Origin: Bifidobacterium breve
Lineage (GTDB): Bacteria > Actinomycetota > Actinomycetes > S36-B12
Assembly (NCBI GenBank): GCA_945900705.1
Contig: CAMDKJ010000001.1
Span: forward strand, 1-62,692
Reading direction: 5' to 3'
DNA length: 62,692 nt
Of this stretch, positions 43,425-45,683 are shown one piece after another. Numbering within the stretch: the first letter of the stretch is position 1; every line of letters begins with the position of its first letter. Both the position numbers and the translations under genes were made by a program. The notes beneath the pieces were generated by a model. That model was not told the origin of the DNA, searched no databases, and worked only from the letters and a program-made list of their open reading frames with translations.

Positions 43425-44060
43425 GTGGGGCAGGTGAGTGGAGTTGCACACCCGATGGGGCCGGAGCCCCCGTGGGTTTATTGGCTCCGCCGGGCAATCA
43501 TCCTTCTTGCCGTTCTAACCTTGCTGGTCGGCGTCTTCTGGCTCGTTACCGGCCGCGGGTCATCAAGAACCGGTTCAACTCCGGTGGCGGTGTCACCGTC
43601 GGCTGCGGCAACGGCAAGCTCCGCCGCTTCACCCACGTCAACGGCTTCGCCTGAACCGGCAACACCGACTGACTGCCTAGATAGCGCAATTGTGGTCGAA
43701 GCGAGTACCGATTCCAGCAAATATGTTGTTGGTGAAGCCCCGCAACTTACTTTGACCATTGGCAATATCGGCGAGGTTTCATGTCTGCGTGATGTTGGGC
43801 CCAAGGCTAATGAGTTGGAGATCACTTCGGGCGGGTATCATGTGTGGTCGAGCGATGACTGCAATGCGAGCAATAAGAGCAAGATTGCGGTCCTAAAGCC
43901 GGGCGAGAAAGTTGCCTCGAGTATCACCTGGGACGGCCAAACCACCCAAAAGGGCTGCCCGAGTGACGGTAAAGCAGCAAAGCAGGGGCGTTATGATCTC
44001 GTCGCGCGCAACAGTGACGTCAAGAGCGAAAAAGCCAAGTTCACACTAAGCAAGAAGTAA
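43425..44060 (+). CDS. Membrane-anchored extracytoplasmic protein with four Cys (DUF4232-like beta-sandwich?)
   Basis: One TM helix (AIILLAVLTLLVGVFWLV), a Ser/Ala/Pro/Thr linker, then a roughly 130-aa domain with C...LTIGNIGEVSCLRDVG...C...C. The start could be 43425 (GTG) or 43455 (ATG). Confidence 0.6.
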   Translation: MGQVSGVAHPMGPEPPWVYWLRRAIILLAVLTLLVGVFWLVTGRGSSRTGSTPVAVSPSAAATASSAASPTSTASPEPATPTDCLDSAIVVEASTDSSKYVVGEAPQLTLTIGNIGEVSCLRDVGPKANELEITSGGYHVWSSDDCNASNKSKIAVLKPGEKVASSITWDGQTTQKGCPSDGKAAKQGRYDLVARNSDVKSEKAKFTLSKK

Positions 44061-44082
44061 TGGATCGGTACCGGAGGCAAGG

Positions 44083-44304
44083 ATGAACAGCGGTTTATCT
44101 AAGTTGTCTTATCGATCAACGGACAGCGTGCTCTCGGCGTACTCAAAAAATTCGGTTCTTAGTATTGGCTCAATCGGATCAGTCTTGTCAATAGGCTCAA
44201 TCGGATCCGCGGTTTCGCTGCTTTCGGTAGGGTCATTTGCAAGCGTTGTTTCAATACTTTCCGGGGCCTCGAAATTTGCAATTATGAAGTGGCGCTCGAA
44301 CTAA
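44083..44304 (+). CDS. 73-aa (Ser-x-x)21 repeat microprotein, hypothetical
   Basis: A GGAGG lies 5 nt upstream of the ATG. Serine occupies residues 3, 6, ... 63 without interruption and no other position in that stretch. All six Ser codons are used. The ORF starts 22 nt after the preceding gene. Confidence 0.55.
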   Translation: MNSGLSKLSYRSTDSVLSAYSKNSVLSIGSIGSVLSIGSIGSAVSLLSVGSFASVVSILSGASKFAIMKWRSN

Positions 44305-45683
44305 CGCTTTGATTCGCTCGCAAGTTTGCGCGCCACCGCGAGCGCCTCACTCAGCGAGGCAACTTCATGCCCGCGAATAACAGGTGCATTCAAATCACTT
44401 TTTGCATCTCGGGGGATAATCGCATCGGTAAAACCAAGGCGCGCGGCTTCGGCTAGTCGGCGGGTCAGGGCCGTAACTTTACGAACATCGCCGGAGAGTC
44501 CGACCTCACCGATTGCAATTAGGCCGCTTGGAAGGGCAATATCGTTAACGCTACTGGCGATGGCAAGCGCGATAGCCAGGTCGGTCGCAGGTTCAAGCAG
44601 GCGTACTCCGCCCACCGTTGCCACGAAGCAATCGGAAGTAGCAAGTTTCAATCCAGAACGCCGCTCAAGTACTCCCAACATCATGGCAATACGCGCCGAG
44701 TCAAGGCCACTGGTTACTCGACGGGGCTGCGGCGCACTGGATGGCGCAATAAGTGCTTGCACTTCGGTGACAAGTGGGCGGCGACCTTCAACCGTGACGG
44801 TTACACAGGTGCCGGGCGCGGGTTCATGGCGATCACCGAGGAACAAGCCGCTTGGATCGGCGAGCCCGATAATGCCATCGTCAACAAGTTCAAAGCACCC
44901 AATTTCATCGGCGGGCCCGAAACGATTTTTTACGGCGCGCACTAAACGCAAGGTGCTGTGCCTGTCGCCCTCGAAGTAGAGCACAACATCAACAAGATGT
45001 TCAAGGGCACGCGGCCCGGCAACACTGCCGTCCTTTGTTACATGTCCGACGATTATTGCGGTCATGCCGCGGGATTTTGCGGTGGCGATAACTGAGGCGG
45101 CGACTTCACGCACTTGGGTAACTCCACCAGCAGCGCCGTCGATCTCGGCACTCGCGATGGTTTGCACGGAGTCAAGGATCAGCAAACTGGGTTCGAGCGA
45201 CTCAACGTGACCGAGCACGCTACCTAAGTCGGTCTCCGCGGCCAGATATAGATCGTCGGCAAGTGCCCCGATGCGTTCGGCGCGCATGCGCACCTGCGCG
45301 GTGGACTCCTCTCCGGTTACATAGAGGGTCAAGTTCCCGGCTTCGGCCCAACGCGAGGCGACGTCAAGTAGCAGTGTTGACTTTCCGACACCGGGTTCAC
45401 CGGCTAACAAGATCACCGCGCCGGGTACCAGCCCACCACCCAAGACCCGATCGAATTCACTAATGCCGGTAGCGGTGGCCTTTGCCGCGGTGAGATCTAC
45501 GGAGCCAATGGGTAGTGCGGGGGTGCCGGCTTTGGCGGCCGTGGTACCTCGAGTCCGAGTAGCACCTATTTCATCAACGGTGCCCCAGGCTTGGCACTCA
45601 CCGCAGCGTCCGGCCCATTTAACGCTGGTCCAACCGCAATCACTGCAGCGATAGGAGGGGGTCTTCGGTGCGGTGCGGGCCAC
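44301..45683 (-). CDS. radA: DNA repair protein RadA
   Basis: Zinc finger YRCSDCGWTSVKWAGRCGECQAWGT, Walker A GEPGVGKST, KNRFG, and a Lon-like C-terminus. Confidence 0.95.
   Translation of the reverse strand: MARTAPKTPSYRCSDCGWTSVKWAGRCGECQAWGTVDEIGATRTRGTTAAKAGTPALPIGSVDLTAAKATATGISEFDRVLGGGLVPGAVILLAGEPGVGKSTLLLDVASRWAEAGNLTLYVTGEESTAQVRMRAERIGALADDLYLAAETDLGSVLGHVESLEPSLLILDSVQTIASAEIDGAAGGVTQVREVAASVIATAKSRGMTAIIVGHVTKDGSVAGPRALEHLVDVVLYFEGDRHSTLRLVRAVKNRFGPADEIGCFELVDDGIIGLADPSGLFLGDRHEPAPGTCVTVTVEGRRPLVTEVQALIAPSSAPQPRRVTSGLDSARIAMMLGVLERRSGLKLATSDCFVATVGGVRLLEPATDLAIALAIASSVNDIALPSGLIAIGEVGLSGDVRKVTALTRRLAEAARLGFTDAIIPRDAKSDLNAPVIRGHEVASLSEALAVARKLASESKR

Follow-up and report, generated by a model that had tools for sequence, protein, structure and literature searches.

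Several described proteins are built on a three-residue register. The snow-flea antifreeze protein (~81 amino acids) has a continuous tripeptide register, and collagen repeats a tripeptide in which one small residue is invariant, an axial Gly in a Pro-rich chain. The TLP-3 pond glycofibrils are triplexes of x-x-Ser repeats in which every third residue is Ser or Thr; their x residues are small, they are heavily O-glycosylated and their length is indefinite (bioRxiv 10.1101/2025.09.30.679562). Here we describe a microprotein gene that lies beside radA in a 62,692-nt stretch of DNA deposited as Bifidobacterium breve (contig CAMDKJ010000001.1; hereafter, the window) and whose product has Ser at every third residue for 21 triplets in succession. 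Like the snow-flea protein and polyglycine II, the microprotein is ~80 amino acids long and repeats a small residue every three positions without a break, but that residue is Ser rather than Gly, the x residues are bulky Val, Ile and Leu, there are no disulfides and no secretion signal, and its covariation is not antiparallel. The Gly at every third residue of collagen and polyglycine II is not found: Ser fills 94% of register cells in the family and Gly 0.4%. In contrast to TLP-3, the microprotein has a fixed length of 21–23 triplets and hydrophobic x residues, excludes Thr and carries no export signal. From comparisons of its homologs, we tentatively favor, at somewhat less than even odds, a stacked-repeat, serine-seamed hydrophobic microprotein that acts at the membrane or self-assembles and is not a modified peptide.

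In the window protein, Ser occupies residues 3, 6 and so on to 63 and no other residue of that span; the sole further Ser, residue 72, is likewise in register. Each of the six Ser codons occurs (TCA eight times, TCG six, AGC three, TCT and TCC twice each and AGT once). The nonapeptide SVLSIGSIG occurs twice, at residues 24–32 and 33–41, and there is no Cys. The register, the use of all six codons, the doubled nonapeptide and the lack of Cys in the 73-residue product had been reported in a preliminary description of the window, and each is confirmed by our reading of the sequence. The 21-triplet run lies far outside chance; across the six frames of the 62.7-kb window, the longest other run with a period of 3, whatever the residue, is 7, which is also the maximum reached in 200 shuffles. 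Since Tandem Repeats Finder detected no DNA tandem repeat at the open reading frame (ORF) and Rfam gave no match for the region, we rejected a DNA tandem repeat or an RNA element as the explanation. The only repeat visible in the DNA is a 14-nt direct repeat, GGCTCAATCGGATC, whose two copies are separated by one nine-residue unit, or nonad (27 nt). This pair is a slight trace of nonad duplication or conversion, the rest of the repeat being codon-diverse.

The preliminary description took the periodicity to be a property of a protein that is translated and selected for, and a comparison of DNA from 86 family members bears this out. By the Nei-Gojobori method, the ratio of nonsynonymous to synonymous substitution rates (dN/dS) is 0.03–0.34 in the 24 informative of 25 close pairs; for the window copy, it is 0.10 against the relative at locus L088 and 0.03 against that at locus L001. 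Differences at codon positions 1, 2 and 3 stand at 140:70:553. The Ser register is kept while codons switch between the TCN and AGY families, both of which are used in nearly every Ser column (41 versus 34 in column 54), and TGC (Cys) is present as the expected intermediate between them. Since dN/dS is low, third-position changes dominate and Ser survives the switches between codon families, these comparisons show that the ORF is a real protein-coding gene. On the same grounds, the window copy appears to be a genuine, independently expressed member of a family of small proteins of ~70–90 amino acids.

Could the ORF nevertheless be spurious, arising by chance from, or read antisense to, a non-coding element or the 3′ region of radA? 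Its GC content is below that of the window (46% versus 57%; 0.50 at third codon positions), its exact protein sequence is missing from the called proteins of a 15-billion-sequence collection, and the minus-strand frame that prolongs radA past its stop (44112–44300) stays open for 63 codons, reading as (D/E)-P-I-like triplets. The low GC content is probably due to a composition rich in Ser, Ile, Leu, Val and Gly rather than to foreign origin, which is disfavored because L001 and L088 hold the gene at the same place. The open minus-strand frame is a by-product of the plus-strand TCN Ser codons; it is open in 56 of the 86 homologs and is interrupted by stops in the other 30, and we rejected it as the true product for that reason. 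Considering all five alternative frames, stops occur in 12–60 of the 86 homologs, depending on the frame (26–74 are open). Purifying selection is specific to the microprotein frame, Ser is preserved across TCN/AGY switching, start-codon and −10 signals are conserved, Rfam gives no match, and the family's more than 1,200 clusters occupy genomic contexts that have nothing in common. Codon conservation and the selection tests effectively refute a spurious ORF, which we regard as exceedingly improbable.

The family is large and has been annotated only as small proteins without a function. A search with the single sequence retrieved 50 small "hypothetical" proteins with the identical register. When 1.84 billion cluster representatives were searched with a profile, 1,246 matched at E ≤ 1e-3 and 577 at E ≤ 1e-10, and a word-indexed profile search returned 1,561 clusters defined at 90% identity; the family thus comprises at least 1,246 clusters at 50% identity. 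All members whose source is named belong to Actinomycetota and are labeled "hypothetical" or "uncharacterized". Carriers include Streptomyces griseus, S. angustmyceticus, Kribbella pittospori, Nocardia uniformis, N. neocaledoniensis and a Solirubrobacteraceae metagenome-assembled genome (MAG), and the family is also found in freshwater and soil Actinomycetota MAGs.

Searches of family and structure databases returned no name for these proteins, in agreement with the preliminary description, which knew of none. Pfam has no family at E ≤ 1 for the window protein, including the left-handed beta-helix hexapeptide (PF00132, [LIV]-[GAED]-x2-[STAV]-x), and precomputed Pfam annotation is blank for all listed homologs. 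The sole NCBIfam match is HxsA4, a His-Xaa-Ser repeat protein, at E = 0.18 and 12.7 bits against a cutoff of 55. A profile search of the PDB matched just synthetic (GST)n linkers and low-complexity segments, PHROGs and PADLOC gave no families, and literature searches by motif string and for tripeptide repeats yielded nothing on the family. There was no tblastn match to plasmids or to phages, although the BLAST low-complexity filter may mask the query. A pattern-based scan of 2.9 million viral contigs recovered just two weak family loci, L170 and L171. Because PHROGs, PADLOC and phage tblastn were negative and the viral scan produced only these two loci, a phage or defense origin is excluded at the level tested. 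The first of the two viral loci lies on a 248-kb contig (IMGVR_UViG_645948410_000001), which may be a mis-binned bacterial or prophage region. On these comparisons, we rate the family as unnamed, its strict sequence rule as having no described counterpart, and the whole as new as a protein architecture.

What does the family conserve? The core has a fixed length and an invariant number of repeat units, and both flanks are variable. The core consists of seven nonads (residues 6–68), each of three S-x-x triplets, with the consensus S-V-L-S-I-G-S-x-G; the nonad is canonical three times (residues 15–41) and degenerate in the four further units. Across the 86 sequences, conservation of Ser is 84–100% in every register column between residues 6 and 63, with the consensus register running on to residue 69, and all of these columns are constrained about equally. 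Several x positions match the Ser positions in conservation: L17 and L26 are 100% conserved, L35 95%, and G29, G32, G38, G41 and G50 97–100%, with I19 and I28 at ~84%. Over ~39 consensus columns there is no Lys, Arg, Asp or Glu. The ends are aromatic and basic, with an N-terminal consensus of S-R-W-S-L-W-S-E-D-S and a tail in which M68, W70 and R71 are 78%, 72% and 88% conserved. The first 12 residues of the tail have a mean net charge of +1.9, and the stop codon lies a median of 16 residues past the W-R pair. Members annotated at 200–315 amino acids have an Arg/Pro/Ala-rich read-through 5′ of the core; we rejected these long N-terminal extensions as fused domains, since they are over-called starts and the conserved ATG adjoins the core.

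The replacements that the register accepts are informative. Among 1,889 register cells, 1,784 hold Ser, 52 Ala, 35 Cys, 8 Gly, 3 Lys, and one each Thr and Pro, whereas single-step mutation from the observed codons would yield Thr in 16%, Pro in 15% and Ala in 15% of non-Ser outcomes. Since Ala, Cys and Gly replace Ser while Thr and Pro almost never do, the constraint on the register appears to be for a small residue, with a hydroxyl preferred, which is a signature of packing. Phosphorylation, glycosylation and dehydration sites usually tolerate Thr.

This pattern bears on a possibility raised in the preliminary description, that the protein is a Ser-rich precursor for modification. Its Ser residues might undergo dehydration, as in ribosomally synthesized and post-translationally modified peptides (RiPPs), or radical-SAM crosslinking, O-glycosylation or phosphorylation. 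Three-residue motifs are known in some RiPP precursors, the HxsA4 match falls below threshold but is to a protein of that kind (small, with a three-residue period that includes Ser), and the core of the TLP-3 glycofibril is x-x-Ser(O-glycan). The HxsA score is far below its cutoff, however, and the microprotein repeat has neither His nor aromatic residues and no radical-SAM neighbor. No modifying enzyme or other conserved neighbor was found in 85 family loci, and neither LanB/C/M nor a radical-SAM gene is present in the Pfam-annotated contexts. The core begins 2–14 residues past the initiating Met, leaving no leader peptide, and there is no secretion signal. In addition, conservation of the x positions and of the overall length equals that of the Ser residues, and strong purifying selection acts on all 65 residues of the core. 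Since partner genes and a leader peptide are lacking and Thr is excluded, the precursor reading is disfavored, and we consider it very unlikely.

If the Ser residues are packed, how might the chain be folded? We measured covariation by mutual information with average product correction in 185 non-redundant sequences. A separation of nine residues characterizes each of the five strongest pairs and 15 of the strongest 60; separations of 3, 4 and 7 are rare, and there is no pattern of constant i+j such as a hairpin would give. Residue volumes compensate along positions 34-43-52-61-70 (V/A versus A/F, F/(A,G) versus A/W, and (A,G)/W versus F/(S,A)), and positions 13 and 22 tend to carry complementary charge. 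Among known structures, the geometry that best fits an i/i+9 volume-compensating ladder is the RTX nonapeptide beta-roll (GGxGxDxUx, HemolysinCabind), which is likewise made of tandem nonads; it has two nonads per coil, and the inward residues of successive nonads pack across a narrow core. The microprotein differs in having no GGxGxD calcium motif, a nonad consensus without Asp and no Pfam match, and in being a probably cytoplasmic, apparently leaderless protein of seven nonads with Ser at every third residue and a predicted aliphatic exterior.

We favor a structure in which the seven nonads would stack as rungs of a compact, solenoid-like repeat with two sheets. The register Ser, judging from its replacements, would fill a sterically restricted site for a small residue and would probably hydrogen-bond; together with the ladder of Val, Ala, Phe and Trp, these Ser residues would form the inner seam. 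The near-equal constraint on all register columns fits equivalent environments for the Ser residues. The invariant Gly residues would make the turns, and the invariant Leu and Ile would face outward. Because Leu and Ile would point outward, such a rod would have a greasy surface in need of burial: it would either self-associate or lie in or on the cytoplasmic membrane and place its Trp/Arg-rich ends at the interface. A link to the membrane is supported by the charge-free core between Lys/Arg and Trp flanks and by a distinct subfamily (P0032, P0033, P0034, P0036, P0039, P0044, P0046 and P0048; for example, L087:8001-8342) in which an N-terminal transmembrane (TM) helix and RRR precede an S-x-x domain of ~19 triplets that ends in DGGFLS[IV]GR. 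As the TM helix and RRR come before the repeat, this subfamily appears to link the repeat domain with the membrane, on its cytoplasmic side. The role would then be that of a structural or membrane-active microprotein rather than of a substrate for serine modification. The solenoid and the membrane oligomer, both named in the preliminary description, are the best, though unproven, candidates.

Several results weigh against a stacked-nonad structure. The preliminary description had proposed predicting the structure of the monomer, and AlphaFold2 returned no confident fold. With 23 sequences, it gave one long helix (residues 11–72), and with 102 sequences a helix at residues 43–72 and coil elsewhere, including the best-conserved nonads; the pLDDT (predicted local distance difference test) was 55–56 in both runs, and neither contained beta structure. 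Coupling at the repeat period is a known confounder, since it can arise from unit conversion or shared ancestry, and there is a small excess of codon sharing at separation 9: synonymous codons are shared at equivalent nonad positions at a frequency of 0.498, with 0.468 expected, which suggests that homogenization of the repeats at the DNA level is weak but not zero. A nine-residue rung (18 residues per coil) would be unusual, and the motif that builds RTX-type rolls is absent. Hydropathy is borderline, with Kyte-Doolittle means of 1.1–1.5 for 19-residue windows and 1.2–1.3 for each half of the charge-free stretch, yet the best such window in the window protein reaches 1.8, so that a helical membrane hairpin is possible. 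The insertion energies that argue the other way are approximate estimates on a translocon scale.

The hairpin deserves separate consideration. The protein could be an alpha-helical integral membrane protein, with Ser/Gly-rich TM helices at about residues 24–42 and 45–66 and both ends in the cytoplasm, or it could be held by a C-terminal tail anchor. In one variant, the small residues would permit tight packing or oligomers, possibly giving a Ser-lined pore or a toxin-like perturbant of membranes. The charge-free residues between Lys/Arg and Trp, the positive tail and the peak in hydropathy would all suit such a protein, a helix is the only structured element that AlphaFold2 predicts, and many small membrane proteins are likewise encoded by stand-alone, leaderless genes. 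The microprotein also resembles proteins with Gly/Ser-zipper TM helices and small hydrophobic membrane toxins in being short, stand-alone, hydrophobic and rich in small residues, with basic and aromatic flanks. Its period is 3, however, rather than the 4 or 7 of zipper helices, and insertion is estimated to be unfavorable: each half of the charge-free stretch costs +5.4 kcal/mol on the translocon scale, and no 19-residue window in the 185 sequences falls to zero or below, whereas the N-terminal helix of the P0034 subfamily comes to −0.23 kcal/mol on the same scale. No polar turn separates the two halves. An alpha-helix would turn the Ser residues in six directions, some of them toward lipid, which sits poorly with the equal constraint on all of them, and covariation is found at i/i+9 and not at i/i+3, i/i+4, i/i+7 or between hairpin pairs. 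Val/Ile, Gly and Ser abound in the sequence, the AlphaFold2 models are of low confidence, and the ~65-residue core is far longer and more conserved than is typical of type I toxins. Taken with the points in its favor, these make a TM hairpin or tail anchor somewhat unlikely.

It is also conceivable that the protein forms a bundle of helices with three residues per turn (polyproline II (PPII), polyglycine-II-like or 3-10), with separate stripes of Ser, Val/Ile and Leu/Gly, in which the hydroxyl stripe would be either the core or a face for binding ice, mineral or glycan. Such a bundle would make all Ser residues equivalent, as their strict period of 3 and equal constraint suggest, and the L-G-G-L-G-G order of the x2 stripe resembles a knobs-and-holes pattern; the snow-flea antifreeze protein and TLP-3 provide precedents for the tripeptide register. 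But known PPII bundles and triple helices require Gly, not Ser, at the buried site, and here the x residues are bulky aliphatics, Pro is absent and there is no signal peptide. Residues i and i+9 would lie 18–28 Å apart within a single helix of this type, and the constant i+j coupling that an antiparallel bundle predicts is not seen. We regard this alternative as improbable.

Turning to genomic setting, the gene's surroundings offer little guidance as to function. The preliminary description asked whether such genes recur next to radA or the upstream ORF. The two closest relatives, at L001 and L088 (85–93% identical), keep an intact, syntenic ORF, and the Ser register is preserved throughout the homologs; none of the outcomes that the preliminary description had named as refuting its reading was observed. 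Of 80 radA loci, however, L001 alone carries the microprotein next to radA, and the other 79 have no copy within 4 kb. All-against-all clustering of neighbors in the 85 family loci revealed no conserved neighbor, the largest cluster being five closely related loci. Synteny with radA or with the upstream ORF, being confined to L001 and L088, was therefore rejected as a clue to function, as was guilt by association more generally, given that no neighbor cluster extends beyond those five loci. The Pfam-annotated contexts are unrelated to one another (TspO, GH3, a pyridoxal phosphate-dependent decarboxylase, a BON-domain protein, a metallo-beta-lactamase and an Rv2525c-like protein, among others), and no locus contains tandem paralogs. 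In 43 of 68 scorable loci, the microprotein gene converges with its downstream neighbor, whose 3′ end it often abuts or overlaps by 0–60 nt (L081–L167), as with radA in the window; this frequent convergent overlap may come from insertion of the small gene into intergenic space on the terminator side.

Most family members seem to be transcribed on their own. An in-frame ATG lies 2–14 codons 5′ of the core in 66 of 79 loci, compared with 12% of control windows. Canonical Shine-Dalgarno (SD) sequences are not enriched among the homologs (20 of 80, versus 15 expected), and 59% of the 58 unique upstream regions contain a −10-like NANNNT hexamer that ends 6–7 nt ahead of the ATG, compared with ~2% per offset elsewhere. 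A −10 hexamer just before the ATG is a hallmark of leaderless actinobacterial mRNAs. Because this hexamer directly precedes the ATG and SD sequences are not enriched, most homologs look leaderless, and the family would normally be an independent, leaderless transcription unit.

The window copy is an exception to this pattern in that it has an SD sequence, a feature peculiar to the window lineage. Its ORF begins 22 nt past the stop codon of an upstream ORF, and its own TAA (44302–44304) overlaps the convergent stop codon of radA; these spacings and the position of the GGAGG (Table 1) agree with the preliminary description. Given its SD sequence, and since no promoter-like or terminator-like site lies between the two genes, the microprotein gene is probably co-transcribed with the upstream ORF, in the window lineage only. 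In addition to its N-terminal hydrophobic segment, the product of the upstream ORF has four Cys residues and a linker of Ala, Ser, Thr and Pro. It had been called DUF4232-like, a label that finds no support, as it belongs to no Pfam or NCBIfam family. The window RadA is 92% identical to that of a freshwater "acSTL" Actinomycetes MAG. The whole window (1–62692) lacks tRNA and tmRNA genes, and no Rfam family reaches the gathering threshold in it.

Table 1. Positions of the microprotein gene, its sequence elements and adjacent genes in the window
Feature	Coordinates	Strand	Remarks
Microprotein gene	44083–44304	+	73 codons and TAA; translation matches the earlier reading
Shine-Dalgarno-like GGAGG	44073–44077	+	5 nt 5′ of the ATG; read from the sequence; the same in L088
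Continuous Ser-x-x register	44089–44271	+	Residues 3–63, 21 triplets
Three canonical nonads, S-V-L-S-I-G-S-x-G	44125–44205	+	Residues 15–41; best-conserved section
Charge-free stretch	44152–44271	+	Residues 24–63; Lys/Arg at both flanks
C-terminal tail, KFAIMKWRSN	44272–44301	+	Aromatic and basic; family consensus S-R-W-S-V-M-S-W-R-S-R-R
Two copies of 14-nt GGCTCAATCGGATC	44167–44180 and 44194–44207	+	27 nt apart, equal to one nonad
Upstream co-directional ORF	43425–44060	+	211 amino acids; N-terminal hydrophobic segment; syntenic in L001 and L088
radA	44301–45683	−	TIGR00416, E = 2e-151; convergent

It is possible, though on balance doubtful, that these proteins represent an architecture not seen before, in which seven three-fold nonads form a solenoid-like rod with a serine-ladder seam and an aliphatic outside that assembles in or on the actinobacterial membrane, is made from leaderless mRNAs and possibly has a general physiological role. 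Were the rod architecture true, it would constitute a new structural class of bacterial microprotein, and a stacked-nonad or three-fold geometry would be a new way of building a protein from a hydroxyl ladder. Small proteins are systematically overlooked or left unannotated, and this family, with its more than 1,200 clusters, is an example; it also provides a clean test case for how structure predictors treat short periodic sequences. Finally, if the microprotein is indeed a membrane protein, it would be a conserved, probably abundant and so far unstudied component of actinobacterial envelopes or stress physiology.

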